This document shows, one piece after another, positions 1 through 18,293 of a stretch of 29,401 nucleotides of DNA. Position numbers and translations under genes: made by a program. Position 1 is the first letter of the stretch. Each line of letters begins with the position of its first letter. The stretch comes from an uncultured Methanosarcinales archaeon (GTDB lineage Archaea > Nanobdellota > Nanobdellia > Woesearchaeales > GW2011-AR9), in assembly GCA_964343575.1 (NCBI GenBank), contig CAYFJV010000001.1:62001-91401 (forward strand), given 5' to 3'. Under the pieces are notes generated by a model. It was not told where the DNA came from and ran no database searches. It saw nothing but the letters and a program-made list of their open reading frames with translations.

Positions 1-70
1 TTTTTTCGATCGCTAGAATTGAGTTCTCTTGAAAAGGATCTAGGGTGAGCCCTTTGAATTTCATTGACAT
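1..70 (-). CDS. 5' end of probable Ski2/HelY-like DEAD/DEAH-box helicase (runs off window)
   Basis: Not in ORF track. Minus strand from ATG at 70 reads MSMKFKGLTLDPFQENSILAIEK; 'LDPFQxxxIxxIE' resembles the Q-motif preceding Walker A in Ski2-like helicases. TATA-like CTTATAA ~30 nt upstream. Confidence 0.55.
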   Translation of the reverse strand, partial: MSMKFKGLTLDPFQENSILAIEK

Positions 71-130
71 ATTGGGTTCTGAGAAGGGGAGTTGGGGTTA
101 TAAGGGTTTCTGTGTTTTCTTTACTGTGTT

Positions 131-670
131 TTATCTATATAAGCGATAATCAAGCGTTGAGAAATAATTTTGTGTTCTGCGATCCATTTCAAATCTAGTT
201 AACTCGCCTATGAGTTTGTTAAAATTCCCTGTGCCTGACCATCCGCCGTTTTTCATCCAAGCATCTAAGACAAGTCCCGCTTGGACTTGTGATCTTGTTG
301 TGTATTCTTTTCCAATGGTAATCTCAATAGATCTTGCTGCTCTTTGAGATGCGATATGGTGGATCTTAAGGAGTGCATGTGTTCTTGCAAACATTTGAAA
401 CCCACCTTGGCTTCTCCCAGAGACTATGCCTACTTTATCTGAATATTCCCTTATCTCTTGGATAATTTCTTCTTCACCGAATGGGTTGGTTCTAGTGTAA
501 ACGTGATTAATGCAACTTACGCATCCCATCTCTCTTCCTTGTGCTATTAGCTCTGAATTTTCTGGTTGCCTACCTACAAGGATAAGTTCAGGAAGCTCTA
601 TTGTTTCAGGTGAAGTTCCTAGTGCGCGAGAAAAATTTCCAGAAACCTTGTTCATTCTACCAGAAAGCAT
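131..670 (-). CDS. hypothetical protein (179 aa)
   Basis: Longest ORF in the interval, ATG start, co-oriented with neighbours; no recognisable motif. Confidence 0.6.
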   Translation of the reverse strand: MLSGRMNKVSGNFSRALGTSPETIELPELILVGRQPENSELIAQGREMGCVSCINHVYTRTNPFGEEEIIQEIREYSDKVGIVSGRSQGGFQMFARTHALLKIHHIASQRAARSIEITIGKEYTTRSQVQAGLVLDAWMKNGGWSGTGNFNKLIGELTRFEMDRRTQNYFSTLDYRLYR

Positions 671-750
671 TGGTGTTTTGCCAAAGTGCCTTCATAAAAT
701 GATTTGCCCGCAATTCTGTGGTTTTTGTGTTTTTTGCTTTAGTCAAGATT

Positions 751-1080
751 CTAATTAAAGAGATCTAAAACGCCACTTTGAGCGAGTACTGCAATGGTCA
801 GACCAAGAATAATAAGAAAGGAGTAGAGTATTCTGAGCTCGAATGCTTCTGCTTTGAGTTCTTTGTCTTTGTAGCTTTTGATAAAAATAGCATGGTAAAG
901 AAAAACTCTCCCTCTGATTACTGCTAGAGTACTCACCCGATCACCTCTCATTGGCGGATCCCACTCTTTGTAGTAGGAAGTTTCTTTACTCATAACTTGC
1001 TTAAGAAATTTCAGATACCTTCCATGGATGAGTAAGGATAAACAAAGGAGTACAAAAAAAACAATAAAAAATTTTTCCAT
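751..1080 (-). CDS. small membrane protein (2 predicted TM helices)
   Basis: Hydrophobic N- and C-terminal segments; starts 2 nt after the stop of the upstream gene (operon). Confidence 0.7.
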   Translation of the reverse strand: MEKFFIVFFVLLCLSLLIHGRYLKFLKQVMSKETSYYKEWDPPMRGDRVSTLAVIRGRVFLYHAIFIKSYKDKELKAEAFELRILYSFLIILGLTIAVLAQSGVLDLFN

Positions 1081-1082
1081 TT

Positions 1083-1568
1083 TTAAGAGAAAGACATCAT
1101 CTTTTCCTTCTTTGCCTTCTTAAGATGGTTTACAAAGGTAATCCACAGTGTTACTCTTACAATGGTACCAACAGTAATGATCACAAAGGCGAATGTGCTT
1201 CCTGCTGCTATAAAGAAAGCACCTGCATTCGTGAAAGAATCTTGCGCTATTAAAAAAGAAGTGATTAAGACTTCTGTAATACTCTTGATGATCGCCGCAC
1301 TGAAGGCAATGTGTGTCCATGAGATTACATCTTTCTTTACTCTGTAGAGTTTTAGAAAGTAGATAATCATTATTGGTGTGTAGATCAGCGCAATCAATGC
1401 TGTTGCCATAGAAAAGCTTAACGTTGTGCTAGGAACAGTTCCAAGAAGAAAAAGAACTGTGGAAATAATGCTTGTAAAAATAGAGGAAATACCTTGCAGT
1501 ATGGCAATCCCTACTAGAACTAACATTATAATCGTAAATGTTGTTTTGCTTGTTTTTTTCGTTTTCAT
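1083..1568 (-). CDS. integral membrane protein (~4 TM helices)
   Basis: Four hydrophobic stretches, basic termini; archaeal-type SD AGGTGA a few nt upstream of the ATG. Confidence 0.75.
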   Translation of the reverse strand: MKTKKTSKTTFTIIMLVLVGIAILQGISSIFTSIISTVLFLLGTVPSTTLSFSMATALIALIYTPIMIIYFLKLYRVKKDVISWTHIAFSAAIIKSITEVLITSFLIAQDSFTNAGAFFIAAGSTFAFVIITVGTIVRVTLWITFVNHLKKAKKEKMMSFS

Positions 1569-2705: not shown

Positions 2706-4523
2706 TTAGTTCTTCACTTCTTCTAACCAACCCTTTATGATGGCAAAGCCGCCTTCCCAGAACTTAGCATCTGTGATGTTTACATCAACGCTCTTGAGCA
2801 ATTTTACTGGATCTTGACTTCCGCCCGCTTTGAGAATCTTTTCTAGTTTGGGTAAGAATGCTTTTCCTTCCTCTTTGTATCTTGCATAAAGTGCAAGACT
2901 GAGGAGTTCTCCAAAGTTGTAGGCATAAATGTAAAACGGGCTGTGGAAAATGTGTGGCATGTAAGACCATTCATACTTAAATTCTTCAGAGATTTCAACA
3001 GCATCACCAAAATGCTCTGTAAGAGTTGAGAAGAAAATCTTTGAGAGTTCGTCTTTGTTGATCCCTTCTTGAAGTGCTTTGTGAGCGAGTATTTCAAATT
3101 TTAAGAAATAGTTTTGACGAATGATTGTGGCGTAACTGTCTGCTAGCTTGTCCATGAGCATTGCTGTTTTTTCTTCTTTACTTTTTGTTCTAGAAAGCAT
3201 CTCTTCAAAGACAATCATCTCTCCAAAGGTACTTGCTGTTTCGCAAAGAGGAAGTGGGGCGTGTGTTACACTATGATAATGCTTGCTTGCGTACATATCA
3301 TGCACTGCATGACCCAACTCATGAGCCAAAGTCGAGACATCTGTTTGTCTTCCAGTATAATTTGTTAAGACATAAGGTAAAATCGAAGGAGTAATACTCA
3401 TACAGAAAGCGCCATTTCTTTTGTTTTCTTTTGGATGACTATCTAGATGTCCTGCCTGAAGAACAGATTTTGCCTTTTGTGCAAAGTCTGGAGAAAAATT
3501 TTCGAAGGTTTCAAAGACAATTTTTTTTGCTTCTTTGAAAGGAATTTGCTCTTTTTTTCTTTGACTAATTGGAGCATAGACATCATATCTTCTTAACTTC
3601 TTAACCCCAAGCATTTTTGCCTTTATCTTGAAGTATTCCTGGAAGAGATCTGTGTTCTTCTCACATGTTTTTAGGAGCGTTTCTATAACTTTATCGGGGA
3701 TTTGGTTTGCAAAGTTTCGCACAGAGATACTGTTTGGATACTTTCTTATTTTTGCTTCTTGCGCCCAATCTTTTGCAATGGCTGCATAGATCAAAAACAA
3801 TTTATCACTGTTCTTCTGATATGGTTCTAAGAGTGCTTGGTAAGCAGCTTTTCTTATTTTTGGATCTTTATTTCTCACGTAGGCAACTACTTTTTCTTGT
3901 CCTTTAATCTTCTTCTCCTCTATGCTTCCGTCTTCTCTTTCTATCTTCATTGTGTAAATAAAATCGTTAACAATAAGATCGTAAAGCTCACTAATCACAT
4001 CAATTCCATTGGTATCTTTTTTGTGAATGAGTTGTTCTTCTTTTACTGAAAGTGTATGTTTTGCTGCTTCTCTGCTGTGATTTAAGGAAAAGTTGAGGTC
4101 TGGAATGCTCTTGAAGAGTCGCTTTGCGTTTGTATCGTCAAGCATGTCTTTTTCTTTGATATCTTCAACTGGAAGTCCTTTGATCCAATGACTTAAGAAT
4201 AAAGTCTCTTCACTGATCTTGATACTGAGGTTGTCAAGCTTGCTTTGGAAAACTCTTGCCTCTTGGTTTTTGATATCTGTTGCTAGAAGAAGGCTGGTGT
4301 AAGCACCAAGCCTGCTTAGGTCCTCTTTGAACTCTTCACTGAGTTCCATAATCTCTTTGAATCGTTTCTCTGTGAGTGTAGGAGAAAGTTCTTTTTTGAT
4401 TACTTTGAATTGTTTGAGTTCGGTTTCTACTTTTTGATAAAGCTTGTCGAATTCTTTGTTTGGAATGATATCATCTAATTGCCAGTTTGTGCCTTCTTTT
4501 TTTTCTTGATCTTGTTTTGTCAT
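2706..4523 (-). CDS. pepF: M3B family oligoendopeptidase F
   Basis: N-terminal WQLDDI, KRNGAF, zinc motif TLAHELGHAVH, CETASTFGE, WSYMPHIF..PFYIYAYNFG; 605 aa. Confidence 0.93.
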   Translation of the reverse strand: MTKQDQEKKEGTNWQLDDIIPNKEFDKLYQKVETELKQFKVIKKELSPTLTEKRFKEIMELSEEFKEDLSRLGAYTSLLLATDIKNQEARVFQSKLDNLSIKISEETLFLSHWIKGLPVEDIKEKDMLDDTNAKRLFKSIPDLNFSLNHSREAAKHTLSVKEEQLIHKKDTNGIDVISELYDLIVNDFIYTMKIEREDGSIEEKKIKGQEKVVAYVRNKDPKIRKAAYQALLEPYQKNSDKLFLIYAAIAKDWAQEAKIRKYPNSISVRNFANQIPDKVIETLLKTCEKNTDLFQEYFKIKAKMLGVKKLRRYDVYAPISQRKKEQIPFKEAKKIVFETFENFSPDFAQKAKSVLQAGHLDSHPKENKRNGAFCMSITPSILPYVLTNYTGRQTDVSTLAHELGHAVHDMYASKHYHSVTHAPLPLCETASTFGEMIVFEEMLSRTKSKEEKTAMLMDKLADSYATIIRQNYFLKFEILAHKALQEGINKDELSKIFFSTLTEHFGDAVEISEEFKYEWSYMPHIFHSPFYIYAYNFGELLSLALYARYKEEGKAFLPKLEKILKAGGSQDPVKLLKSVDVNITDAKFWEGGFAIIKGWLEEVKN

Positions 4524-4600
4524 GAGTCTTCGAAGAAGTAGGGGGAATATAAAGCTTGTTGTGTTTTACTCGTATTTGCTTTAGACCTTATTTCCTATCT

Positions 4601-5353
4601 CTAGGCAACGTTGGAGGTGATTCTCTCTAATTTTGCTAACCTTTCTTTTCTTAGGTCGATTCTTCTTTCTGTCATAAATTCTTGGTATCCTTCTAGAGCT
4701 TCTCTGTAGTGAACCCTTCTGACCATCCCTTTCTTTCCTTTTCTCATGCCAAATAAAGAAACTCTTTGTTCAAGCTCTTCTTTTCTTTGATCTCTTCCAA
4801 GTCCGCTAAGATATCTACAAAATATCCTCACTAAATCTGAATCTCTGGTAAGAACCGCAACTCTTTTTCCTTGATAAGCAGCATGGATCCCAGCACCCAC
4901 AATCTCTAAATCTGCTGGACTCTCATTTTCTAGGAAGGGGATTGCACTATCATATCTCCTTAAACATCTTCTAATTCTTCCAAGGGCAGTAACCTGTTGG
5001 GATAAAAGATCAAGACATTCTTCTGCGGTGCGACTCTTTCCTCTTTTTCCATTCAAATAATCTTGGCTTAGAGCAAAGTAAAGAAGCTTTTTTCTCATCT
5101 CTTCTCTTACCTTAGGGGTTGTGTGAGCAGGGAGTCTTCTAAACTGTTCTAACTGCCAAAGGAGTGCTTCAACTTCTCTTTCTACGGGCTTTCTTAAAAC
5201 AGTAAAATCTTGGTTTGTTCTTGCTTTTTTAATCTCTGCTAAGCGATCATTAGAAAGTCCGAGTGCGCAAGTATCAACGAGAAGGAGATCATAACTTTCT
5301 ATTGCTCTGGGAAGTTCTTCGAGTTTTCCTAAATAATCTGGTGACCAAAGCAT
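4601..5353 (-). CDS. PIN-domain-like putative nuclease
   Basis: Acidic PIN signature in order: LLVDTCAL, TPKVREE, SPADLEIV, VLTRDSDL. Confidence 0.7.
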   Translation of the reverse strand: MLWSPDYLGKLEELPRAIESYDLLLVDTCALGLSNDRLAEIKKARTNQDFTVLRKPVEREVEALLWQLEQFRRLPAHTTPKVREEMRKKLLYFALSQDYLNGKRGKSRTAEECLDLLSQQVTALGRIRRCLRRYDSAIPFLENESPADLEIVGAGIHAAYQGKRVAVLTRDSDLVRIFCRYLSGLGRDQRKEELEQRVSLFGMRKGKKGMVRRVHYREALEGYQEFMTERRIDLRKERLAKLERITSNVA

Positions 5354-5417
5354 ATGATCTTAGAATGCGCTTCTTTTAAAAAACTAGAGATATAAAATTG
5401 TCTAATAATCTTCTTTC

Positions 5418-6188
5418 TTAGCATCTTGTTTGTTGATTTCTCTGCCTTCTCTTTCCTCTTCTCCTTCTTGATTTTGCTTCTCTTGCTTTGTAGATACTAA
5501 AAGCTATGCTGAGATCAACCTTTCTTACTTTTTCTGCATCATCTTCTTCCACACGATAAATCTCAAAAAAACTACTCACAAAACCAATTATATCTTCTTG
5601 GCCATTAAGGTACTTGTAGGTGAGAAAAACAATATCATCATCTCTAGTGAGTAAAATTACTTTTTCGTTCTCTTGGGTGTACCTTCCAAGAGCAGCTCCG
5701 ACTAATTTCCTATCTACTCTGTATTTCTCTAAGTGTGAGTTGATCTCAACAATTGGACCCTCATATCTTTCAATTCCTTCTAAAACAGACCTGGCACTTT
5801 CTCTTACTCCTTCTATGGAACCTATCACTCTTTGTAGCCGTGCTCTCTCTTCTCTGCGCATTTCATGCTGTTCTCTTTTCAACTTTCTTCTTAAGAATTC
5901 TTCTCTTCCTGCTAAGAGTCTTGTATACTTTCCTGCTTCTTCCAAAACTTCATTGACAGTTATCGCTCTTCCTCTAAAGAGTTCCCTTTGTCTTTGCAGC
6001 GCTCTTTGCTCAGATCTCATTTTTCCCAAGAGGGTGACATACTCCTCAGTATTTCTTGCTTCTTTGAGATTTCTGCTTAATCCGTTTCTCACCCCAAGAG
6101 CACAATTATCTAAAAAAAAGAATGGGGATCCTTCTAGAACTCCTTCTAGGGCCATTGTAGGTGAAAGGTAACTCTCGCTCCAAACCAT
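5418..6188 (-). CDS. PIN-domain-like putative nuclease (paralog of 4601-5353)
   Basis: FLDNCAL, TVNEVLEE, VDRKLVGAA, LLTRDDDI. Start re-assigned to MVWSESYL, matching MLWSPDYL of the paralog. Confidence 0.7.
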   Translation of the reverse strand: MVWSESYLSPTMALEGVLEGSPFFFLDNCALGVRNGLSRNLKEARNTEEYVTLLGKMRSEQRALQRQRELFRGRAITVNEVLEEAGKYTRLLAGREEFLRRKLKREQHEMRREERARLQRVIGSIEGVRESARSVLEGIERYEGPIVEINSHLEKYRVDRKLVGAALGRYTQENEKVILLTRDDDIVFLTYKYLNGQEDIIGFVSSFFEIYRVEEDDAEKVRKVDLSIAFSIYKAREAKSRRRRGKRRQRNQQTRC

Positions 6189-6247
6189 AAGAAAGTATTT
6201 TTGAGGGCTACTTAAAAAGGGTTCCCTTGTTTTTCCTCCTCTTCTTC

Positions 6248-8242
6248 TCAACCGTGTCGCAGGAATTTCTTCTCTAGTTCTTCAGCAGAAATCTTGGCCA
6301 CAATTGCTCTTCCATGGGGGCAAGTGTAAGGTAAGTTACAGTCGACTAACTCTTTCATCAACTTCTTGATCTGTGGAATGGTCATGGTATCTCCTGCTTT
6401 TACTGAAGCTCGACAAGCCATTCGAGTGATGATCTCTTCTTGCAAGCGTTCCAACTCTTTTACTTTTCCTTCGGCAATTTCTTTGATAATAATGTAGACT
6501 AGCTCTTTGCTCAGGTTTCTTCCAAAAATAGTTGGCATAGAGCTCAGGAAATAATCGTTCTCTCCAAAGTGTTCAAGAGTGAAACCAAAATCTTTGAGCT
6601 TCCATATGTGTTTTTCGACAATGGCTTTTTCTGCTGCAGTAAAGGTTAAGAGTTCTTTTTCAAGGAGTTGTTGGGTCTCGACTTTCTTGTTTAAGTATTC
6701 AGTCATAAAACGCTCATAGAGAACACGCTCCTGTACAACGTGTTGATCGATGAGAAGCATTCCTCCCGGTGTTTCAGCTACGAAAAATGTCTTGTGAATT
6801 TGCCCCAACACTTTCATTGGGGGAAACCTGATGCTTCCTGCGATGAAGTTTTCGTGTTGGTGTTCTGGCCTGGTAAGCTCTTCTGTTCTCGCAGATTGGA
6901 TGATTTGCTCAGCACTGCTTCCATAAGCTGCAATTTCACTTGCTTCTTTCACCTTTGGGTTAGTATAAGTAGTGCTGTAACTTGCAGTACTTTCTTGTTG
7001 CATCTCTTTTTCAATATTGTTTGTTGCTTGTGTGTCTAATTGTAACTCTGCTGTGTTTGTTTGCGCATTTGTATCTGGAAAGACAGTTTGTTCAGATTTT
7101 TCAAAGGCGTATTTTGGATAAGGAGATTTTTCTTGTGGTTTTGGCTCTCCAAAAGTGATCTGTTCTTCAACTTCTAAAGTAAATTCTGGGATAAGATTAT
7201 TCTTTCTGAGAGCTTCGTGCACTGCGTTATAGACTGCTTGATAGACAATTTCTTTTTGCTCAACTTTAATTTCTGTTTTGTTTGGGTGCACGTTGACATC
7301 AATACTTTTTGGATCAAGATCAACATTGAGAATAAAGATGGGATGTTTTCCAGTGAAGAGTAAAGAGTGATAAGCATCGTAAACTGCTTGACTCATGCTT
7401 GCATTTTTCACCCACCTTCCATTAACAAAGAAAGCTTGTTGTGTTTTGTCATTCCTGGCAGAGAGTGGTTTTGAGATGTAGCCTTCCACCTTGATAGCAT
7501 TCTCTTCGTGGAGTCTGCTTACCTTAAGTAAGTCTTTTGCAATGCTTGACCCATAGATGTAAGAAATATTTGTTCTTTGATGCTCAGTGCTTGTTGCGTT
7601 AAGAATTTCTTTTCCCTCATTGATGAGTTTGAAAGAAACATGCGGGTTTGCAAGCGCATATTTAGTAATAATATCAATGATGTGTTTAAGCTCAACAAGG
7701 TCACTTTTGAGAAACTTTTTTCTTGCAGGTGTGTTAAAGAAAAGGTCTCGAATAGTAATGCTTGTTCCAAGATTTGCTGCTGCAATAGTTGATCTAGTAA
7801 TTTGTCCCCCTTCAACATTGATCTGGTAACCTTCAAGGTTTTCTTCCCTGTGTTCAATACTTGGTCCTTGCACTCTTCCTTGATTGTTTCTGATTCTTTT
7901 TTTGGTTAAAATCTGTAATCTTGATACTGCAGAAATGCTTGCTAAAGCTTCTCCTCTGAAACCAAGACTTATGATGTTAAAGAGATCATCTTGCGTTTTG
8001 ATCTTACTGGTTGCATGCCTTAGGATGGATTTTTTGGCATCTTCTTCATCCATTCCTTCCCCATTGTCAATGACTTTGATGAGTTTTTTTCCCGCTTCTT
8101 TGATCTCTACGATGATTTGTGTGGATCCCGCATCGAGGCTGTTCTCGACCAATTCTTTTACTACGCTGGCAGGTCTTTCTACCACTTCACCTGCTGCAAT
8201 TTTGTTGATAATGTCCTCAGAAAGCATGCTAATTTTTGGCAT
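6248..8242 (-). CDS. mutL: DNA mismatch repair endonuclease MutL
   Basis: KIAAGEVVERPASVVKELVENSLDAG, GFRGEALASI, FFNTPARKKF, DVNVHP, C-terminal DQHVVQERVLYE / ACR / CPHGR. Start re-assigned to MPKISML at 8242, TATA-like CTTATAAA just upstream. Confidence 0.97.
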   Translation of the reverse strand: MPKISMLSEDIINKIAAGEVVERPASVVKELVENSLDAGSTQIIVEIKEAGKKLIKVIDNGEGMDEEDAKKSILRHATSKIKTQDDLFNIISLGFRGEALASISAVSRLQILTKKRIRNNQGRVQGPSIEHREENLEGYQINVEGGQITRSTIAAANLGTSITIRDLFFNTPARKKFLKSDLVELKHIIDIITKYALANPHVSFKLINEGKEILNATSTEHQRTNISYIYGSSIAKDLLKVSRLHEENAIKVEGYISKPLSARNDKTQQAFFVNGRWVKNASMSQAVYDAYHSLLFTGKHPIFILNVDLDPKSIDVNVHPNKTEIKVEQKEIVYQAVYNAVHEALRKNNLIPEFTLEVEEQITFGEPKPQEKSPYPKYAFEKSEQTVFPDTNAQTNTAELQLDTQATNNIEKEMQQESTASYSTTYTNPKVKEASEIAAYGSSAEQIIQSARTEELTRPEHQHENFIAGSIRFPPMKVLGQIHKTFFVAETPGGMLLIDQHVVQERVLYERFMTEYLNKKVETQQLLEKELLTFTAAEKAIVEKHIWKLKDFGFTLEHFGENDYFLSSMPTIFGRNLSKELVYIIIKEIAEGKVKELERLQEEIITRMACRASVKAGDTMTIPQIKKLMKELVDCNLPYTCPHGRAIVAKISAEELEKKFLRHG

Positions 8243-8456
8243 GATGAAGATAAGGAAATTTAGCTTTATAAGCATTTGTGGAATGGAGCAAACAGGAGCT
8301 TTATGGGGTTGTGCTTGGCTGGCTAGGAGCTTATTTTGTTGTGGTTTTTGTCTATTTTTGCTTGCTTTTTGTTGTTTGTGAGCTTTAAAAAGGCTAAATT
8401 TTGTCTGGCAGATTTCCCATTTTTGAGAAGTTTTCACTGAAAAGTGACAAACTGCC

Positions 8457-8473
8457 CAAAAGTTTTATAAATA
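8457..8473 (+). promoter_or_regulatory. archaeal BRE + TATA box
   Basis: CAAAAGTTTTATAAATA upstream of leader copy 2, divergent from mutL. Confidence 0.65.
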
Positions 8474-8493
8474 AATGCTGCTTTTCGCTTCTT

Positions 8494-8658
8494 ATCCCAG
8501 GAAATCTGGGACCGGGTTTAGGAACAACAACCTGGGGAATTTCCCTGAAAATCCTGCAAAGTGAATTGTTTTCCTTTGTTTGATTTTCTGCTTCATTTTT
8601 CCCTAAAAATCCTCAGTGAAGAAGAGAGTATGCTCTTGTTTTGCTGAAGATTTCTGTT
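8494..8658 (+). ncRNA. conserved structured 5'-leader element, copy 2
   Basis: Homologous to the reverse complement of 2444-2603; compensatory change in the first hairpin; begins 30 nt after TTTATAA. Confidence 0.65.
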
Positions 8659-8702
8659 GTTTTCTGAGCCTTTCGTTTAAGATTAAAAGAGGCTACAAAA
8701 AA

Positions 8703-9848
8703 ATGGATAAAAAAACACTTGATGAGCTTGCTATATTAGACGCTGCTAAGTTTGAGCGTTTAGCTTTGAGCTCAAAAGAGGGAAGAAAAGTTGGTGCTAG
8801 TTCTAGGAATGCATTGGTGCGTCATGGTTCAACAGAGAAAGCTCTTATTGAAACTCATGCAGGAGAGAATGGAAGCTTGCAGCATACTTTCTATTTTGCT
8901 AAACTTGGCTTTAAGGTACAAGGTTCAAGAAAAGTGTTTGAACAGTCCTTTACTGGTTCTCTTGTGAAAGGGATACGTTTGGCTAGAGAAGAAGTGAGAA
9001 GGAAAGGATATGATCCTAACGTACTTGATTTTAAAGGAGTTGGGGAGAAGACAGTTTGTGGCGAACAAATAACTAATCCAAGAGAATTCTCTGAAGAAGC
9101 ACGTGCAGTTTTGACTAAACTTCAATCCTTAAGAAGAAAAGAAGGGTTGAGTGGAGTCTATTTGTCTCGAAATCACTTGAGAGGTGAAACTTTCGTAGAG
9201 ATTGCTGTGGCTGATTATGTAACAGAAAATCTTGAAGATCCTCAGAAAGCGGTTGGCCTTGTTGTTTCTCCTTTTCTTCAAGGATATACTGGAGCACTTT
9301 TGGCAGCAGCACAAGAATCTGGACTTCGCTTGCAAGAAGCTTACGCTGGCGCAGGTGGAGTTATTGCTTATGAAAGCCTTCCTGGAAAGTTAGACCTCTT
9401 ACAAGGTCGTGTTGGGGGCCTTACTCAGCTTTTAACCCAGAGAGTTCTTAACCTAGATGATAGATCTATGAAATATTTTCTTCAAGGATCTGAACATAAG
9501 GGATTAGCAGTCTCTCGAAGAGATCTTGCTTTGATAAAGCGTCAATCTAAGAATTACAAATTTAATTATTGTAGAGGTGGTGGCGTGAGGGATAGACTTA
9601 TTCGGCTAAGAGAGAGTCAAGCACGACTCCCTTCCGTTGTGACCCATGTTGTTTTTGATCCAAGTGAGCTTGCTGATGTTTATCAAGCACATCAAGTAAA
9701 AGCCATAGAAGATGAAGCATCAAGGTTCATCTCAGCTGGGCAGTTAGCTCTTGGAGATGAAAGGCATACTTCTTCTGGTGTCCGGGGGTTGGGCAGTTCT
9801 GGTTATGCTAGTCCTCTTCTTACCAAAAGAACTAATGGAGATTATTGA
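8703..9848 (+). CDS. hypothetical soluble protein (~381 aa)
   Basis: Long ORF; start re-assigned to ATG 8703 (MDKKTL, AGAGG upstream) because the upstream extension lies in the leader element. Confidence 0.75.
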   Translation: MDKKTLDELAILDAAKFERLALSSKEGRKVGASSRNALVRHGSTEKALIETHAGENGSLQHTFYFAKLGFKVQGSRKVFEQSFTGSLVKGIRLAREEVRRKGYDPNVLDFKGVGEKTVCGEQITNPREFSEEARAVLTKLQSLRRKEGLSGVYLSRNHLRGETFVEIAVADYVTENLEDPQKAVGLVVSPFLQGYTGALLAAAQESGLRLQEAYAGAGGVIAYESLPGKLDLLQGRVGGLTQLLTQRVLNLDDRSMKYFLQGSEHKGLAVSRRDLALIKRQSKNYKFNYCRGGGVRDRLIRLRESQARLPSVVTHVVFDPSELADVYQAHQVKAIEDEASRFISAGQLALGDERHTSSGVRGLGSSGYASPLLTKRTNGDY

Positions 9849-9850
9849 AA

Positions 9851-10717
9851 ATGAGAAATACTTTAGTAAACATTGTTGGTGCTGCAAGCTTTGCAGTTGG
9901 TGTTGGTGTAGCAAGCCCTGCTTTGGCTGCACAGTGTGATGTGAAGGAAACAACACTTCTTGAACGATTACAATCTGAAGGAAAGTTGAGTGATTGGAGT
10001 AAAGAAGTTATGCAAAAAGAAAAAACTCCTTGTCCAAAGTCTGGTAAAACTGCAGATGGTAGGGACCTCCATTTTCAAGAGTGTGATAACCATGATGGAA
10101 AGGTATACTTTGCAGCTGATTCTAAAAGGTTTGTTTATGGGGATGGGAAAGGGAACTATCTTACAAATGGGGATTATCTTCTTACCAAAGCGGGTTCTGA
10201 TGCTTCCTCTCTTGTTGAAGCTGTTGCTGATGGAAGTAAGATTGATTTAGGAGAAAAGGTTCATGTTTATCATACTGTTTGGGATGCACAAAGAGCACTT
10301 GATATGGATAGAATGAGTGAAGTCTACTCTCCTTTAGAATGTGCTCAAAGAGAGCAAGCAGCTCAAGAACTTGCTAATGGTGAGTATGTTCAGGTTGGTA
10401 ACACGGTTCTTGTTCCAGGTAGAAACCAATACGCTGTTACTCACTTAGATATGGGATACCCAGAAACAGGGTTGTGTATTGAGTTTGAAAAAGGTTACAT
10501 CCTTGAGTTAGACCTTAACAGAGGTGGAAAAGTAACTCAAGTTTATCTCTCCAATCATCCTGGTCAGTCTAGCCATAAGCCAATTGCTGGCAGAAAGCGA
10601 GAAGGTTGTAGTGATGCTGCTCCTCTAACTTTTAGAGAAGCCGTCTCTGATGAATATATGGGTGTTGTAAAAGCAATTATGACTCGAAGCGAGATCATTG
10701 CTCATCCCATTAAGTGA
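9851..10717 (+). CDS. secreted hypothetical protein with signal peptide
   Basis: MRNTLVNIVGAASFAVGVGVASPALA-AQ signal peptide; six Cys; GGAG SD. Confidence 0.75.
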   Translation: MRNTLVNIVGAASFAVGVGVASPALAAQCDVKETTLLERLQSEGKLSDWSKEVMQKEKTPCPKSGKTADGRDLHFQECDNHDGKVYFAADSKRFVYGDGKGNYLTNGDYLLTKAGSDASSLVEAVADGSKIDLGEKVHVYHTVWDAQRALDMDRMSEVYSPLECAQREQAAQELANGEYVQVGNTVLVPGRNQYAVTHLDMGYPETGLCIEFEKGYILELDLNRGGKVTQVYLSNHPGQSSHKPIAGRKREGCSDAAPLTFREAVSDEYMGVVKAIMTRSEIIAHPIK

Positions 10718-10735
10718 GTTGATTGGTGAGTAAGA

Positions 10736-11473
10736 ATGGAGAAAGAAATTTTGTTAGGATTAGCAGATTTAAGCAGAGATTGTTTTTTTGATTTAGGATC
10801 AATGCCTCTTGTCTTTGAAGCAAGGCTTGGGTTTGTTTATGAGACACAACCTTCTTCTTTGGAGGCTTTGGGCGTTTTTTATTCTCAGGGAGACCTCTCT
10901 CAAAAGTTACATGGCCCCCTTCGTGGAAGATCGCTTCAAGGAGATACTGTAGAAGAGAGAGACCTGGGTAGGTGGAATGTTTACGAGTTCTCTGCTTTGG
11001 ATCTCAAACTGGGAGAGAGTGCTCGGTCTGATGTTCAAGTTCAGCCTTATCTTGCAACTAAACAGATTTCTGTAAATCGTGGCCCAACCCTGTCCTCTTT
11101 AGAACTTGTAAACGGTGTTTACTCTCCCCAAGATTCAGTAGAAATATCTTCTGCTGAGGTGGTGCGTTCTTTGGTTTCTCAAGCTCCTGATTTTATTAGA
11201 TATGTTGAAACTAAAGAAGAACCCTTACTTGCTTATGTGGGGGTGACTTTGCGTCATATCTCCCCAGATTCTAATGGGGCTTATGTTTCTTTACTCACTA
11301 GCGCCCGGGCTCATGATCTTCATCGGATTTTTGGTCTTTCCTCTCAAACTCTTGAAGAGAAATCTCCCCCTCTCGTTGCTAGATCTTTTCGAGGAAGTGT
11401 GGATGATTCTAGAAGCAGATTTTCTTACCTTTCAGCTATCTCTTTTGATTCTAAGAAGCTTTTAAGAAGGTAA
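10736..11473 (+). CDS. hypothetical protein (245 aa)
   Basis: SD GGTGAG before ATG; followed by T-tracts; no motif recognised. Confidence 0.7.
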   Translation: MEKEILLGLADLSRDCFFDLGSMPLVFEARLGFVYETQPSSLEALGVFYSQGDLSQKLHGPLRGRSLQGDTVEERDLGRWNVYEFSALDLKLGESARSDVQVQPYLATKQISVNRGPTLSSLELVNGVYSPQDSVEISSAEVVRSLVSQAPDFIRYVETKEEPLLAYVGVTLRHISPDSNGAYVSLLTSARAHDLHRIFGLSSQTLEEKSPPLVARSFRGSVDDSRSRFSYLSAISFDSKKLLRR

Positions 11474-11618: not shown

Positions 11619-14018
11619 ATGGTGAGAGATGTGGTAAAGAAAAAAAAAGCGAAGGCTGGAGCAAGGAGTTCTTCTTCAAATTATCACCCAAGCCAACATA
11701 CCCAAAGTTCGCTTGATGCAACCTTACAATTGTTGATTCCGCCGCTTTTGATTGCACTTCTTGCGCTTACTATTTACGAGCTTTTTTTCCCAGTAAATTT
11801 CATTTTCCATGTTTTTATTGATGCATTTGATATCTTTGTCATCTTAGTTTTTGCAACTGATCTTTACTTTCGTTGGAAGGCACATACTGGCTCTGTTTTT
11901 GCTTATATCACTAAGTATTGGTTGGACATACTTGCAACCATCCCATTCAATCTTTTCTTTGCAGGGATACAAACACTTCCTTTGCTTAGAGGACTTCGAC
12001 TTGTTCGCATCATTGGTCGAGCAGGAAGGTATGTTCGTCTTGTTCGGTTCTTTGCAAGAGCCCCAAGGTTTATTCGTTTGACTGGTAAGGTTCCTCCTGC
12101 TCAAACTGGTATTCGTAAGGTGCAACCTCACGAGAAGAAATTGAAGAAAACGCTGAGCTTCAAAACTATCTTACTTATTACTATAAACTCTATTATGGGA
12201 ACTGGTATTTGGTTCTTAACTGCTGCAGGAGCAAAGCATGCTGGTCCAGCATCACTTGTTTCCTGGGCAATTCTTTCTCTTATTTCGCTTTATATCTCTA
12301 TGTGTTTTGCAGAGTTAGTAAGTATGTACCCAAAAGCTGGCGGAGTATATGAGTTTGCAAAACAGGCTTATGGTCGTTTTCCTTCTTTTGTGATTGGATG
12401 GACTACTGCCATTGCAGGAGCAGTAACCATTGCTATGCTTTTGCTTGGGGCGCTTCAGTATTTAATCCCCATTGAGTATGCTTTTACTTACATTCCAATT
12501 GCGGTTGCGCTTATCGTTATCTTTAGTTATGTTGCTTATCGTGGAATGCAAACCTCTACTGTAATGCTGGTTACTTTTGCACTTATCACTTTATTTGCAG
12601 TGCTTGCGATCATTCTTCCTGGTTTGATTAAGTTTAACCCTCAGAATTTGGATCCTTTCTTTGTTTTCCCAACGATGAGTATCTTGCTTACCATCTTTTT
12701 TATCGCAGAGACTTTCTTTGGTTGGGAGAGTGCAGTATTCTTATCTGCTGAAACAAAAAACCCAACTAAGGTTATGCCAAAGGCGCTTATTTACGGAACA
12801 CTTGTTATTGCCTTGCTTTCCTTTTTGCTTGCTTTCACCGCAATTGGAACCATTCCTTGGGAGCAGTATGCAGAATCTGTAGCTCCACTTCGTGATCTTG
12901 GAGAAGCTCACTTTGGGGCCTTGGGAGGTGTCTTTTTTGCAATCCTTATTTTTGTCTCTGTGATAGGAGCTACTGCAGGTTGGGTGGTAACTGCTCCTCG
13001 CTTGTTTATGGCATTGGCTGAGGATAAACTGTTCTTTACACAGTTTGCAAAGATTCATCCTAAAAATAAGAGTCCTTATGTTTCAATATTGTTTCAGGTT
13101 CTTGTGGTTTCTGTTCTCGTGGTGATCGGGGCTGGATCTTATGAAGTCCTACTTCATATGTTGATTCCACTTGTAATCTTGATTTATTCTTCAGTCTTGC
13201 TTGCGGTAATTATTTTACGTTATAAGCGACCGAATGTGAAGAGGGCTTTTAAAGTGCCTTTTGGAAAAATTGGTCCTTTCTTTACCGTATTGTTCATGGT
13301 CTTTTTGCTAGTGATGTTTATTAAAGAGACGCATAGCGCGCTTGATATCTTACGTGTCTCCATCGGGCTTGTACTCTTTGGACTTCCTGCTTACTTTTTT
13401 ATTGAGCTCTTTTACGAGCAAAAGTATGCAAAGTTACGTCAGGAAATTTGGGCTCGTCTGCTTCATTATTTTCCTTTCTTGCACCCAATAGTTCCTTACA
13501 GACGTATTATTGGTATGGTGGGACCCCTTCGTGCTAAGACGAAAATCATGTCAGTGAGCTTTCCTTCAGATATCTTTAGCCATTATCTGCTTCGTCGTGC
13601 TTATGCCTTTGGAAGTATCTTAAGCTTACATCAATCTCAGTATGAACTTCAAGGAATTAAGAAGAAAATTTCATCCCACTCATCAAGAAAGAAGGTTACT
13701 TTGAAGAGAGTAAAATCTTTGTCTGTACTCCCGGGAGCAAACACTAAGAACAACTTCAATGTAATTGTTTCTTATAATGATCTTGGATATACTAAGAACC
13801 TTCCTAAGTTCTTCAAGAGCGTATCTTCTAATTTGACTCGTGGTGGAAAGTTTTGTTTGTATGTGCGCCATAGCTTTTTTGATATGAAACCTAACGCAAT
13901 TGAGCTTGATAAGACCAAAGAGCTCTTGAAGATGGCTAAAGAAAGTGGTTTGCAAGCAAAATATTTGAAGCTGAATCGGGTAGGGTATACTGAGATCTTT
14001 ATTTATGGGAAGAAGTAG
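11619..14018 (+). CDS. APC-family amino-acid permease fused to an N-terminal voltage-sensor-like (S1-S4) domain and a C-terminal degenerate class I methyltransferase-like domain
   Basis: VSD: VFATDLYFR (S2), YWLDILATIP (S3), LRGLRLVRIIGRAGRYVRLVRFFARAPRFIR (S4). APC: LKKTL, NSIMGTGIW, GPASLVSW, YPKAGGVYEF, FFGWES, ETKNPTKVMPKA, RPNVKRAFKVP. MTase-like: FNVIVSYNDL..NLPKFFKSVSSNLTRGGKFCL. Confidence 0.88.
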   Translation: MVRDVVKKKKAKAGARSSSSNYHPSQHTQSSLDATLQLLIPPLLIALLALTIYELFFPVNFIFHVFIDAFDIFVILVFATDLYFRWKAHTGSVFAYITKYWLDILATIPFNLFFAGIQTLPLLRGLRLVRIIGRAGRYVRLVRFFARAPRFIRLTGKVPPAQTGIRKVQPHEKKLKKTLSFKTILLITINSIMGTGIWFLTAAGAKHAGPASLVSWAILSLISLYISMCFAELVSMYPKAGGVYEFAKQAYGRFPSFVIGWTTAIAGAVTIAMLLLGALQYLIPIEYAFTYIPIAVALIVIFSYVAYRGMQTSTVMLVTFALITLFAVLAIILPGLIKFNPQNLDPFFVFPTMSILLTIFFIAETFFGWESAVFLSAETKNPTKVMPKALIYGTLVIALLSFLLAFTAIGTIPWEQYAESVAPLRDLGEAHFGALGGVFFAILIFVSVIGATAGWVVTAPRLFMALAEDKLFFTQFAKIHPKNKSPYVSILFQVLVVSVLVVIGAGSYEVLLHMLIPLVILIYSSVLLAVIILRYKRPNVKRAFKVPFGKIGPFFTVLFMVFLLVMFIKETHSALDILRVSIGLVLFGLPAYFFIELFYEQKYAKLRQEIWARLLHYFPFLHPIVPYRRIIGMVGPLRAKTKIMSVSFPSDIFSHYLLRRAYAFGSILSLHQSQYELQGIKKKISSHSSRKKVTLKRVKSLSVLPGANTKNNFNVIVSYNDLGYTKNLPKFFKSVSSNLTRGGKFCLYVRHSFFDMKPNAIELDKTKELLKMAKESGLQAKYLKLNRVGYTEIFIYGKK

Positions 14019-14041: not shown

Positions 14042-14749
14042 TTACTTTCCAAAGTTTCTTTGTCTATTTTGGAATTGTTCAAGAACAGTGATGAGGTCTT
14101 CTTTGGTAAACTCTGGCCAGAATTTTTCTAGGAAGAACCATTCAGAATACCAAGTCTGCCAGATAAGAAAATTGGATGTTCTTGTGTTTCCTTTTCCTGT
14201 TCGGATTACAAGATCTGGTTCACTTTGCAAAAGAAGTTCTTGGCTAAATTCTTCCATGGTAAAAGGCTTTTCTCTTTTGTTAGTGATTGCTTTATTTACA
14301 GCATCTAAGATTTCTTCCCTTCCGCCGTAAGCAAGTGCAAAGTTAGCAATAAGTTCTTTGTTTTCCTTGGTTTTCTCTTCAAGATCCTTCATGAGTGTTT
14401 GAATCTTCTCGTTGAACATATGTTTTCTCCCAATGAATTTGATGCGAATCTTTTTCTCTTCGAGCACCTTGAGCCTCTCTCCTAAGAAATCATCAAGCAT
14501 CTTTCTGAACAGTGAGAGTAAGAAATTGACTTCAGTTTTTACTCGTTTAAAATTTTGAATAGACATAGCATAAAAGGTAAACTCTTTTACACCAAGCTCT
14601 TTAATGTTCCAGTTGAAGAGTGCGTTTTCTATCACTTCTAGGCCTTTCTCGTGCCCTTTTCCTGGAGCTAAACCTTGTTCTTTAGCAAATCTGCGGTTAC
14701 CATCCATGATGAAAGCTACATGTTTTGCCTGATGTTTTAGAGTTGTCAT
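14042..14749 (-). CDS. uppS: cis-prenyltransferase (undecaprenyl/polyprenyl diphosphate synthase)
   Basis: HVAFIMDGNRRFA, YAMSIQNFKR, LAYGGREEI, EPDLVIRT..RTSNFLIWQ, WPEF, RQRNFGK. Confidence 0.96.
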   Translation of the reverse strand: MTTLKHQAKHVAFIMDGNRRFAKEQGLAPGKGHEKGLEVIENALFNWNIKELGVKEFTFYAMSIQNFKRVKTEVNFLLSLFRKMLDDFLGERLKVLEEKKIRIKFIGRKHMFNEKIQTLMKDLEEKTKENKELIANFALAYGGREEILDAVNKAITNKREKPFTMEEFSQELLLQSEPDLVIRTGKGNTRTSNFLIWQTWYSEWFFLEKFWPEFTKEDLITVLEQFQNRQRNFGK

Positions 14750-15489: not shown

Positions 15490-18063
15490 TTAGAATTTTT
15501 CTAAGCTCATCTGTTCGTGCATCTTTTTAGCTTTGATCTTTTTGACCATCTCATCTTCTGCTTCTAATGCACGCTGGATCTCTCTTGCACGCTGAACCAC
15601 ACTTGCTGGCATGCCTGCTAATTTTGCTACATGCACTCCATGGCTTTGATCAGTACCACCATGTACAAGTTTTCGTAAGAAAATAACTTCTCCAGCAATT
15701 TCTTTAACAGCAATGTTGTAGTTGCTGATCTTTTCAAAGCGATCTTCCAGTTTATTGAGCACATGATAATGCGTAGCGAATAAGGTTTTTGCTTTGATAT
15801 GATTGTAAATGTGCTCAGCTGTGCTCCAGGCAATAGATACTCCATCGAAAGTGGAAGTTCCTCTGCCAATTTCATCTAAGATGATAAGACTTTTTTCTGT
15901 TGCGTTGTTGAGAATGTTAGCAGTCTCAAGCATCTCTACCATAAAAGTACTTTGCCCTGCTGCCAAGTCATCATGCGCTCCAACACGAGTGAAGATGCGA
16001 TCTACAATGCTAAGTGTTGCAGAACTTGCTGGAACAAAGGATCCAATTTGTGCCATAAGTACAATGAGCGCAGTTTGTCTCATCACTGTACTTTTTCCTG
16101 AAGTGTTTGGTCCAGTGATAATCATAATTTCCCCTTGCTCAAGTTTGATGCTGTTTGGAATAAAATTTTCCTCAATGCGCTCGACCACCGGATGTCTTCC
16201 ATCAATAATTTGAAGTGAATGTGGGTCCTTGTTGTCAAGTAGGGTTGGCTTACAGTAGTTGTATTCAGTTGCGCAAGAGCTAAAAGAGCAAAGTACATCA
16301 AGCAATGCGATCTTGTTGGCAGTCTCTTGAATAATTTTGGTGTGCTGCTTTGCGGCATCAAGAATTTGTTGGAAAATGTTGTACTCAAGCACTTTGATTT
16401 TTTCTTCTGCGCCAAGAATCTTGTCTTCTTCGATCTTTAATTCTTCTGTGATATAGCGTTCAGCGTTAGCTGTGGTCTGTTTTCGAATGTAAGTTTCTGG
16501 AACAAGACTTGTGTTCTTTTTGGTTACTTCAATGAAATAGCCAAAGACTCGATTAAATCCAACTTTAAGACCTGTTGTGATACCAAGTTTTTCTTTTTCT
16601 CTTTCCTCAATTTGTGCTAGAAATTGTTTTGCATTTGTTTTGATGGAGACGAGCTCTTGCAGTTCCTTGTTGAACTCTGCTTTGATGAAGCCACCTTCTC
16701 TTATGGTAATTGGAGCATCTTCACGAATGGCGTTGTTAATAAGGTTGTACACTTCTGCAAGGTTTGGAAGTTCTTTAATCTCTTTGATGAGCTGGCTGTT
16801 GCATTTGAGAAGCTCTTGCTGTATGTAGGGGAGTTGTAGTAAGGTGTCCCGAAGAGCTAGAAGATCTCTTGGACTTGCATTCCCATAATTAATTCTTCCA
16901 ATGAGGCGTTCAAGATCATACACATTTTTGAGAAGTGTTTTGACATCTTCACGCTGCAAGACTTTCTGATTGAGCTCTTCTACTGCATCAAGTCGTTGTT
17001 TAATTTTTTCCTTTTTTAGTAAGGGTTCTTTGATGATTCTTTTGAGCATACGTTTCCCAAGAACAGTAATTGTTTTGTCGATGACACTCAGAAGAGTTCC
17101 TTTTGCACCAAGCTTTCCTTGCTCAGAGATGTTACGCATATTGGTGAGTAATTCAAGGTTGAGTAGTGTACTGCGATCAAGTTGCATAATGTCGCTGTGT
17201 TTTACTTGCTTTATTCTTTTGAAATGTGAGAGGCTCTTTTTTTGTGTTTCAAGAAGGTAATTGAAGAGTGCTCCTGCAACACGAATCTCGTTTGTATTAT
17301 TGCCTTCTTTTTCTCTACTCCCTTTTTTCTTTTCTTTTTGTTCCTCTAGTCCAAATGCCTTAAGACTTTTCACGTTAAACTGTTCGTGAAGAATTTTGCT
17401 TGCTGTGTCTGGCTTAAAATAATAATCCGGATAACTGTTTACTGTTGCTCCGATCTTTTTTATTTGGTTGATAAGCTCTTGGTTTACGAGAAGTGATTCT
17501 GGGACCAAACACTCAGCAATTGCTCTTCGTTGCATTTCTGCTAAGATAAGGTCTTCGTTGTTAAGAGAGCCAGTGAGAAACTCTCCAGTGGAAAGGTCTG
17601 CTAGCGCATAGTTGTACTCTTCCCCTTGAACTAGTAGAGCAAAGATGTAATTGTTTGTTGTTGCGTCTAGAAGATTTGATTCGATAAGTGTTCCTTTGGT
17701 AACAATTCTTACCAATCCTCGTTTGACTAATCCCTTTGCTTTTTTAGGATCTTCAAGTTGCTCGATAATTGCTACTTTGTGTCCTTTTTGTACCAGTCTT
17801 CCAAGATAGGTTTCTAAGGCATGATAAGGAACGCCAGCAAGTGGGGCTGTTTTTTCTCCTTTACCACGTTTGGTAAGCGTGATTTCAAGATCTCTTGCTG
17901 CGATCTCAGCGTCTTGGTAAAACATTTCATAGAAGTCGCCCATCCTGAGCATGATGAGGCAGTCTGGATTGGCTTCCTTTGCTTCACGATACTGCTTCAT
18001 TCCAGGTGTGAGGAGGTGGAGTGGAACGTCTAGAATACTAGTGCCAAGGGCGCTGTTTACCAT
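15490..18063 (-). CDS. mutS: DNA mismatch repair protein MutS (MutS1 type)
   Basis: TPGMKQY, RMGDFYEMF (F-x-E mismatch motif), YDLERL, GRHPVVE, ITGPNTSGKST, IFTRVGAHDDL, STFMVEM, DEIGRGTST, FATHYH. Exact start uncertain. Confidence 0.97.
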   Translation of the reverse strand: MVNSALGTSILDVPLHLLTPGMKQYREAKEANPDCLIMLRMGDFYEMFYQDAEIAARDLEITLTKRGKGEKTAPLAGVPYHALETYLGRLVQKGHKVAIIEQLEDPKKAKGLVKRGLVRIVTKGTLIESNLLDATTNNYIFALLVQGEEYNYALADLSTGEFLTGSLNNEDLILAEMQRRAIAECLVPESLLVNQELINQIKKIGATVNSYPDYYFKPDTASKILHEQFNVKSLKAFGLEEQKEKKKGSREKEGNNTNEIRVAGALFNYLLETQKKSLSHFKRIKQVKHSDIMQLDRSTLLNLELLTNMRNISEQGKLGAKGTLLSVIDKTITVLGKRMLKRIIKEPLLKKEKIKQRLDAVEELNQKVLQREDVKTLLKNVYDLERLIGRINYGNASPRDLLALRDTLLQLPYIQQELLKCNSQLIKEIKELPNLAEVYNLINNAIREDAPITIREGGFIKAEFNKELQELVSIKTNAKQFLAQIEEREKEKLGITTGLKVGFNRVFGYFIEVTKKNTSLVPETYIRKQTTANAERYITEELKIEEDKILGAEEKIKVLEYNIFQQILDAAKQHTKIIQETANKIALLDVLCSFSSCATEYNYCKPTLLDNKDPHSLQIIDGRHPVVERIEENFIPNSIKLEQGEIMIITGPNTSGKSTVMRQTALIVLMAQIGSFVPASSATLSIVDRIFTRVGAHDDLAAGQSTFMVEMLETANILNNATEKSLIILDEIGRGTSTFDGVSIAWSTAEHIYNHIKAKTLFATHYHVLNKLEDRFEKISNYNIAVKEIAGEVIFLRKLVHGGTDQSHGVHVAKLAGMPASVVQRAREIQRALEAEDEMVKKIKAKKMHEQMSLEKF

Positions 18064-18293
18064 GGCATTTTTGTTTAAAAAGACCTTCTTAACCTTTTCG
18101 CCAGTTGAGCAGAGGGATTTGGGTAGAGGTATTGAGTATGTATTTTGCTTGGTTTTGCGGTTTTTGGCTCTGTTTGGCGTTGCTGTGGTGTTTTTAGGCA
18201 CTCTTTGGCAGCTTAGTGATTCTGGAGGATCATTTTAGGAAAATTATAGAAAAAAGAAGTATATTTTTAAAAAAAGCATAAATTTCTTGGCAA

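Follow-up and report, generated by a model that had tools for sequence, protein, structure and literature searches.

The window analysed here is a 29,401-nucleotide stretch of contig CAYFJV010000001.1, from the genome of an uncultured archaeon (1.21 Mb, 95% complete), and the subject of this report is a single uninterrupted open reading frame (ORF) within it, at 11619..14018 (+), which starts with ATG and encodes 799 amino acids (aa). The product is a three-domain inner-membrane protein composed of a pore-less voltage-sensor domain (VSD), an APC permease with 12 transmembrane segments (TM) and a degenerate cytoplasmic methyltransferase fold. An earlier reading of the sequence alone, referred to below as the original prediction, had described a VSD-APC fusion, and while that architecture held, the C-terminal methyltransferase-like domain had been overlooked, so that the protein is tripartite. 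The parts of the gene are listed below together with the evidence on which each was placed, which included AlphaFold2 (AF2) models and their confidence score, the predicted local distance difference test (pLDDT).

11619..14018 (+): whole ORF, comprising VSD, linker, APC permease and methyltransferase-like domain; 799 aa plus stop
11619..11708 (+): N-terminal Lys-rich cytoplasmic extension, residues 1-30 (alignment; pLDDT <60)
11709..11786 (+): S1 helix, residues 31-56, containing E54 (AF2 helix 31-56)
11799..11882 (+): S2 helix, residues 61-88, with D68, D71, F78, D81 and R85 (AF2; alignment)
11895..11975 (+): kinked S3 helix, residues 93-119, with W101, D103 and P109 (AF2 helices 93-99, 101-107 and 110-119)
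11979..12086 (+): S4 and its cytoplasmic extension, residues 121-156, with ten Arg and P149 (sequence; alignments)
12087..12152 (+): S4-to-TM1 linker, residues 157-178, with I165-R-K-V-Q-P170-H171-E-K173 (conservation)
12153..13418 (+): APC (LeuT-fold) amino-acid permease, residues 179-600, with TM1 G194-T-G196 and TM6 F366-F-G-W-E370 (Pfam; solved structures)
13419..13520 (+): cytoplasmic helices between TM12 and the C-terminal domain, residues 601-634 (AF2 helices 601-617 and 625-634)
13521..14015 (+): C-terminal class I methyltransferase-like alpha/beta domain, residues 635-799 (weak Pfam matches; AF2; profile)

Most relatives of the protein begin at a position aligned with about residue 27, i.e. 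approximately 26 residues later, and no plausible start codon other than the ATG at 11619 was seen. The sequence signatures named in the original prediction were located in the translation. The S2 signature VFATDLYFR occupies residues 77-85 (F78-x-x-D81-x-x-x-R85), the S3 pattern W-x-D-x4-IP corresponds to W101-L-D103-I-L-A-T-I108-P109, and the long S4 with Arg at mostly every third position contains ten Arg within 30 residues, spaced 3 or 4 apart. The permease motifs, GTG in TM1 and FFGWE in TM6, lie at residues 194-196 and 366-370 in the same frame. As had also been stated, no pore domain (S5, P-loop, S6) follows S4: Pfam analysis of the whole protein returned neither Ion_trans_2 nor the C-terminal half of Ion_trans, and in their place a linker of about 22-25 residues (157-178) leads into TM1 of the permease.

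Sequence homology and the predicted fold both identified residues ~31-156 as a genuine S1-S4 VSD. A single-sequence phmmer search against solved structures gave nine matches, all of them Kv channels, at E-values of 0.35-0.69 that are too weak to stand alone; here the S4 of the window protein was aligned to the S4 of hERG. When residues 1-176 were searched by phmmer against 1.84 billion representative sequences, 112 proteins were recovered at E<=1e-3, and 68 of these were scanned against Pfam. A match to Ion_trans at E<=0.01 was found in 49 of the 68, in every case within profile positions ~3-130, the part of the family model that covers S1-S4, with the remaining 19 giving no Ion_trans match; 17 of the scanned relatives scored above the Pfam Ion_trans cut-off and five were complete Kv-like channels with an Ion_trans_2 pore. 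A VSD profile was then built from the domain and 93 short relatives, leaving out all pore-bearing sequences, and searched against solved structures, where it matched seven chains at E<=0.01, 7/7 being channel VSDs, among them the KvAP VSD (1ors, E 1.1e-4), bacterial Nav and Shaker. A hidden Markov model (HMM) of the N-termini of the fused family reached a full channel, P0198, at E 2.5e-6 (scaled to 1.84e9 sequences), and hhalign comparison of the same N-termini with six pore-bearing Kv-like channels gave a probability of 98.1% (E 8.8e-14) over 103 columns running from S1 to S4, with S4 placed on S4. The S2 helix likewise aligned with S2 of KvAP and of Kv-like channels.

The AF2 model of the N-terminal domain (pLDDT 76.2) contained four helices at residues 31-56, 61-88, 93-119 (kinked) and 121-156. 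Foldseek returned a list made up nearly entirely of VSD proteins, with the KvAP VSD first. In an all-against-all structural search of 48,161 chains, which was independent of Foldseek, S1-S4 proteins filled all of the top 30 rows and the first unrelated protein appeared at rank 31, in agreement with the four-helix VSD fold that had been predicted. The matches included Kv4.2 (Z 9.4), Ci-VSP (Z 8.3), the SLC9C1 VSD (Z 7.9) and the KvAP VSD (Z 7.9), as well as Nav, Cav, HCN and KAT1, although Z-scores of 7.6-9.4 lie in a range that helical bundles can reach through their common arrangement alone. The fold was therefore assigned on the uniformity of the match list together with the sequence evidence, the Z values alone not being decisive.

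Conservation was counted over 87 aligned sequences, namely the window protein and 86 other protein clusters of the same architecture. E54 is Glu in 85/87 and Asp in one; D71, F78, D81 and R85 are each retained in 86/87; D103 is Asp in 83/87 and Glu in three; and P109 is retained in 87/87. With conservative exchanges counted, E54, D71, F78, D81, R85 and D103 occur together in 85 of the 87. The S2 helix thus carries outer acidic residues and a charge-transfer centre, F-x-x-D-x-x-x-R, which align with the equivalent positions of KvAP, and judged by sequence the charge-transfer centre of the window VSD is complete (F78, D81, D103, D71, D68 and E54). The S4 arginines, at residues 124, 127, 130, 134, 137, 140, 143, 147, 150 and 153, are each retained in 64-87 of the 87 sequences. 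With 10 basic residues in 36, the S4 region of the window protein is at the short end of the family, the relatives having a median of 15 basic residues (range 9-19) in 45. The conserved residues are those which define a working sensor, a pattern indicating that the VSD is selectively maintained. The linker segment I165-R-K-V-Q-P-H-E-K173 is nearly invariant, with P170 and H171 present in 87/87 and Q169 in 86/87. Unfused sister proteins begin immediately after this motif, and I-R-K-V-Q-P-H is therefore specific to the fusion.

With respect to the permease, the expectation of a complete APC carrier in frame was borne out by Pfam, in which residues 179-566 matched AA_permease_2 (160.2 bits, the cut-off being 27; E 9.9e-47) and covered profile positions 1-406 of 427. 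AA_permease also scored above its cut-off on the whole protein, with Spore_permease and Methyltransf_31 as weak matches. Solved SLC7-type carriers aligned along the whole permease, approximately 420 residues, and included BasC (6f2g, E 4.6e-31), LAT1 (6jmq, E 1.1e-27), GkApcT (5oqt, E 1.5e-27) and xCT. The best NCBIfam match was TIGR00909 (E 1.4e-57), whose 195.6 bits lie below the cut-off of 556.8; no substrate-specific equivalog was assigned by NCBIfam, all matches being far below their cut-offs.

The C-terminal residues 635-799 gave weak matches to four Pfam families (Methyltransf_31, 12, 23 and 11), and Pfam methyltransferase matches were present in 32/87 family members. In the AF2 model strands alternate with helices over residues 642-798 (pLDDT mostly 74-97). 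A profile of this domain, built from fused and unfused relatives, matched 36 solved chains at E<=1e-3, all of them class I S-adenosylmethionine (SAM)-dependent methyltransferases (best E 2.7e-8). In the window protein the glycine-rich SAM loop of motif I, C-G-x-G-G, is replaced by S-F-P-S-D, and the acidic residue of motif II by H-Q. As both SAM motifs have been lost, the domain is a degenerate methyltransferase copy which is probably non-catalytic. Both motifs are retained in only 15 of the 86 fused relatives, and the domain itself is present in every fused member except one fragment.

The 86 other clusters came from several data sources, on contigs of up to 922 kb. Nearly all are 750-790 aa in length, with 42-55% identity in the N-terminal domain and 55-66% over the full length, and where the source gives a name it is a Woesearchaeota or Nanoarchaeota 'amino acid permease'. 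A survey of the architecture in DPANN genomes, as suggested with the original prediction, was carried out on 401 genomes of the phylum, each at least 90% complete. A VSD-like match (E<=1e-5) was found in 129 of the 401, and the fused form, counted at E<=3e-32 in frames of about 600-870 aa, in 23, among them the genome of the window. The other 22 comprised 15 of the 41 other genomes of the same family and seven genomes from five other families of the same order. Searches of the other orders in this sample did not find the fused form; there, only short stand-alone VSD frames were seen. Stand-alone VSD-like ORFs of about 130-340 aa are common across the phylum and make up most of the matches in the 129 genomes. 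The VSD-APC fusion is real and conserved in a DPANN lineage, and is not an assembly artefact.

Unfused APC-methyltransferase proteins of ~626 aa occur in the same lineages (27 clusters; 79 loci). A FastTree tree of 115 proteins, calculated from the permease and C-terminal domain only, placed the 86 fused rows on one side of a single branch with support of 100, which corresponds to one change, and under midpoint rooting the sister of the fused group was the ~626-aa unfused group. From this single branch it follows that the VSD was probably joined once to an existing APC-methyltransferase protein or, less simply, was lost once. In the APC-methyltransferase relatives at loci L069, L070 and L071 the stop-to-stop frames run to about 840-847 aa, an excess of ~200 residues in which no match to a VSD was obtained.

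The genome of the window also encodes a second, stand-alone VSD protein of 219 aa (Ion_trans, 20.9 bits). At locus L014 (G000:C1:460001-470000) this genome has a VSD gene at 4007-4666 (+) and an APC gene at 4686-6854 (-), tail to tail and 20 bp apart, the latter encoding 722 aa with a methyltransferase domain in which the SAM motifs are intact. This gene pair is the split counterpart of the fused gene, within the same genome. Across the window genome and 14 relatives, 4 of 17 VSD ORFs without an APC domain adjoin an APC-methyltransferase gene (the fused gene in one case), and a VSD-bearing gene lies within 4 kb in 9 of the 79 APC-methyltransferase loci. Adjacency at this frequency is far above the rate that a complement of two or three such genes in a total of about a thousand would produce, with the qualification that the counts overstate independence, as the genomes are related to each other. 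Divergent VSD|APC pairs were seen at L030 and L101 and a convergent pair at L059. Loci L036, L039 and L106 (about 3980-9875 each) hold arrays of unfused APC with C-terminal domain, fused VSD-APC with C-terminal domain, VSD (-) and APC (+) genes, which points to sensor and carrier genes having been duplicated and reshuffled locally. At L017 (G007:C23:55500-65900), in a relative, a Kv-like channel with a TVGYGD filter at 3797-4777 (-) and a VSD-only gene at 4818-5441 (-) are divergent from an unfused APC-methyltransferase gene at 5578-7467 (+). The genome of the window, at 95% completeness, gave no Ion_trans_2 match, and hence no K-channel pore domain which the sensor could serve; it encodes A and B subunits of an A/V-type ATPase and three APC genes.

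Among known proteins the closest counterpart in plan was SLC9C1, in which a secondary transporter likewise shares one chain with a canonical VSD that lacks a pore and has a long S4, and with a cytoplasmic domain whose fold is a ligand-binding one. The VSD of SLC9C1 (8pcz, residues 676-818) superposed on the AF2 model with Z 7.9 and a root-mean-square deviation of 3.1 A over 103 residues. SLC9C1 differs in being eukaryotic and in having a CPA/NhaA-fold exchanger rather than an APC/LeuT-fold permease; its VSD comes after the transporter in the chain and precedes a cyclic nucleotide-binding domain, for which Pfam gave no match in the whole window protein, whereas the window protein has its VSD at the N-terminus, with a direct connection to TM1. 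Voltage dependence has been demonstrated for SLC9C1, while the window protein is likened to it from sequence and predicted fold. As carrier fold, domain order and third domain all differ, the window protein is analogous to SLC9C1 and not homologous to it as a whole. In a review (PMC13095418), SLC9C1, VSPs, Hv1 and TMEM266 are treated as non-channel VSD proteins and the S4 of SLC9C1 is described as long and reaching into the cytoplasmic domains; two further papers call SLC9C1 the only known transporter regulated by voltage-sensing domains (PMC10620092, a structure paper of 2023) and refer to its 'unique tripartite domain composition' (PMC10620091).

The VSDs of KvAP and other prokaryotic Kv channels (S1-S4 half of PF00520) were the best sequence relatives among solved structures, with the Asp/hydrophobic/Asp/Arg positions of S2 and the acidic-plus-Pro positions of S3 aligned to those of the KvAP VSD and S4 aligned to the channel S4. 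Unlike Kv channels, the window protein has no S4-S5 linker, S5, P-loop or S6, and its S4 is far longer, with 10 Arg (the relatives having a median of 15 basic residues). Ci-VSP (4g7v; Z 8.3 over 125 residues) is alike in that a pore-less VSD with a short linker after S4 controls a non-channel effector; that effector is a soluble PTEN-like enzyme, whereas here it is a polytopic carrier, with an enzyme-like domain following only much later. Hv1 is a VSD-only protein with a short S4 carrying three Arg and a proton-selective Asp in S1. The window VSD carries ten S4 Arg and is fused to a carrier; its S1 contains E54. BasC, LAT1 and GkApcT match the permease along its whole length but have neither an N-terminal VSD nor a C-terminal methyltransferase-like domain. 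The unfused Woesearchaeota/Nanoarchaeota APC-methyltransferase proteins (~626 aa, annotated 'amino acid permease') share both the permease and the C-terminal domain; they lack the VSD, have intact SAM motifs (for example the G007 protein and the paralog in the window genome) and in some cases have a stand-alone VSD gene as neighbour instead. In one further paper (PMC7690953), mammalian Slc7a5 (LAT1) is described as modulating Kv1 channels in a manner dependent on the Kv1 voltage-sensing domain.

Taken with the domains, their homology and their conservation, which supply its structural part, the reading we favour is that membrane voltage controls amino-acid transport by way of S4, the linker and TM1a, to which we assign a probability of roughly 0.5. 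The S4 helix would move with the membrane potential, and this motion would reach TM1a of the permease by way of the S4 extension and the invariant linker, possibly with the cytoplasmic C-terminal domain as a platform or brace for transmission, such that amino-acid transport would be switched on or off by voltage. The S4 of a VSD ends in the cytoplasm, where TM1 of an APC carrier begins, and the topology of the fusion therefore fits; in LeuT-fold carriers it is the swing of TM1a that opens the inner gate. A plausible purpose would be to stop carrier-mediated leakage once a small, host-dependent archaeon loses its membrane potential. As to polarity, a long S4 also marks HCN, KAT1 and SLC9C1, and because of this our guess is activation by hyperpolarisation, which would be physiologically attractive in that it would lock the carrier in a de-energised cell. 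Whereas domains, homology, conservation, origin and distribution come directly from the comparisons described above, we infer the movement of the sensor, its coupling to transport, the polarity of gating and the substrate.

Several observations weigh against voltage control. Of the two Pfam families named in the original prediction, AA_permease_2 was matched but Ion_trans (PF00520) was not, residues 1-176 returning 0 families at E<=10. Foldseek gave nothing at E<=0.001 for the N-terminal model, the best match being the KvAP VSD at E 0.014, and the structural Z-scores are subject to the reservation given with them. In the full-length AF2 model pLDDT was 47-64 in S4 and below 50 in residues 156-205, where coupling would occur. 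In length the S4 region far exceeds a membrane span, and part of it may do something besides voltage sensing; and no VSD gene was found near 70 of the 79 APC-methyltransferase loci. The low confidence in S4 is also consistent with a domain that has the VSD fold and does not switch with voltage, but anchors the protein in the membrane, takes part in assembly or lipid binding (by a polybasic helix on the anionic lipids of archaea) or assists the permease in the manner of a chaperone. Voltage-insensitive S1-S4 domains of the polycystin/TRP type exist and were also among the structural matches, and many genomes of the phylum have stand-alone VSD-like ORFs of unknown role. The residues kept in the family, however, are the charge-transfer set and not packing positions only, and they are kept together in 85/87, so that we regard a non-switching VSD as unlikely. 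Coupling through the cytoplasmic domain, as in SLC9C1 or Ci-VSP, in place of a direct pull on TM1a, we would rate as rather unlikely also. In this variant the methyltransferase-like domain would be the docking site of the long basic S4 extension and would clamp the inner face of the permease; in relatives with intact motifs its enzyme activity would be switched instead. The 36-residue S4 region (median of 45 in relatives, with up to 19 basic residues) is longer than the membrane by itself would require, the C-terminal domain occurs in all fused members but one fragment, and both SAM motifs are intact in 15/86 fused relatives. A comparable arrangement is described for SLC9C1 in PMC13095418, where the C-terminal part of its long S4 is embedded among cytoplasmic helices and its VSD lies about 2 nm from the transporter. 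The S4-TM1 linker of the window family, on the other hand, is short and invariant, which speaks for a direct mechanical connection.

Protons are conducted by Hv1, a VSD without a pore, and the window VSD might similarly form a conduction path of its own, either an Hv1-like proton path or an omega-type leak, which would supply or dissipate the coupling ion beside the permease. An Hv1 chimera (3wkv) was among the structural matches (Z 7.1, rank 47), and the absence of a pore domain from the window genome is in keeping with such a role. We nevertheless consider it improbable: the Arg ladder is full and the F78 plug conserved, as is typical of sensors that are occluded and do not conduct, and the closest sequence relatives are Kv-type sensors. 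The review cited above (PMC13095418) further states that omega currents in channels require loss of S4 Arg and that Hv channels have not been found in bacteria or archaea. The joining of two genes by a frameshift or by an assembly error, the latter a doubt raised in the original prediction, could have been suspected from the split VSD and APC-methyltransferase genes that are natural neighbours in relatives. It is refuted by the same uninterrupted frame in 86 other clusters from several data sources, the fusion in 22 other genomes, the invariant junction sequence and the single, well-supported clade formed by the fused proteins, and we give it virtually no weight.

Voltage sensors are textbook parts of ion channels, and to our knowledge only a handful of non-channel effectors are known for them; the fusion would extend such VSD-controlled effectors to an APC carrier in archaea. 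No member of the family carries a Pfam Ion_trans annotation, PF00520 being absent from the precomputed domain lists of all 87, which is why the architecture has gone unnoticed. Literature searches, which had most subscription journals outside their reach, found no published VSD-APC fusion and no prokaryotic VSD-transporter fusion, and none of the latter is named in the accessible portions of two reviews, PMC13095418 (2024) and PMC13661669 (2025); the words 'transporter', 'exchanger', 'permease' and 'archaea' do not occur in the portion of the 2025 review that was available. A bolder and more tentative proposal is that a voltage-gated secondary transporter arose independently in DPANN archaea belonging to a single order, with a pore-less sensor on TM1 of a LeuT-fold carrier and a former SAM-binding domain as third module, and that the stand-alone VSDs beside unfused paralogs may be detachable voltage-sensing subunits of carriers, in genomes without a channel pore. 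If this were true, prokaryotes would have arrived by convergence at a counterpart of the tripartite SLC9C1, and coupling of sensor and carrier would have arisen more than once. It would also mean that the LeuT fold, on which neurotransmitter and SLC7 transporters are built, lends itself to such coupling, and that the coupling exists in prokaryotes, in organisms without any pore domain. The family would offer a small natural system for studying how S4 motion can gate an alternating-access cycle, with natural controls at hand in the unfused sister clade and the stand-alone sensors. In ecological terms, the reading points to a tie between the nutrient uptake of host-dependent DPANN cells and their state of energisation.

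Other pore-less VSD fusions were observed among relatives of the VSD (P0116, P0130, P0159, P0170 and P0160, and L015 at 52-1545 (-)). In four of these proteins (~305-313 aa) a VSD comes after TM_HPP, in one dGTP_diPhyd_N comes after a VSD, and a further fusion of 498 aa has an N-terminal VSD and a C-terminal part without a Pfam match.

The neighbours of the fused gene in the window, namely MutL, MutS, UppS, a peptidase M3 and several ORFs without a Pfam match, gave no functional clue. Upstream, at 8616-11473 (+), lie three consecutive ORFs of 410, 290 and 245 aa without a Pfam match at E<=0.001. Homologues of MutL and MutS, both of full length, lie on either side of the region at 6248-8437 (-) and 15490-18201 (-), and a homologue of undecaprenyl-diphosphate synthase is encoded directly downstream of the fused gene, at 14042-14749 (-).

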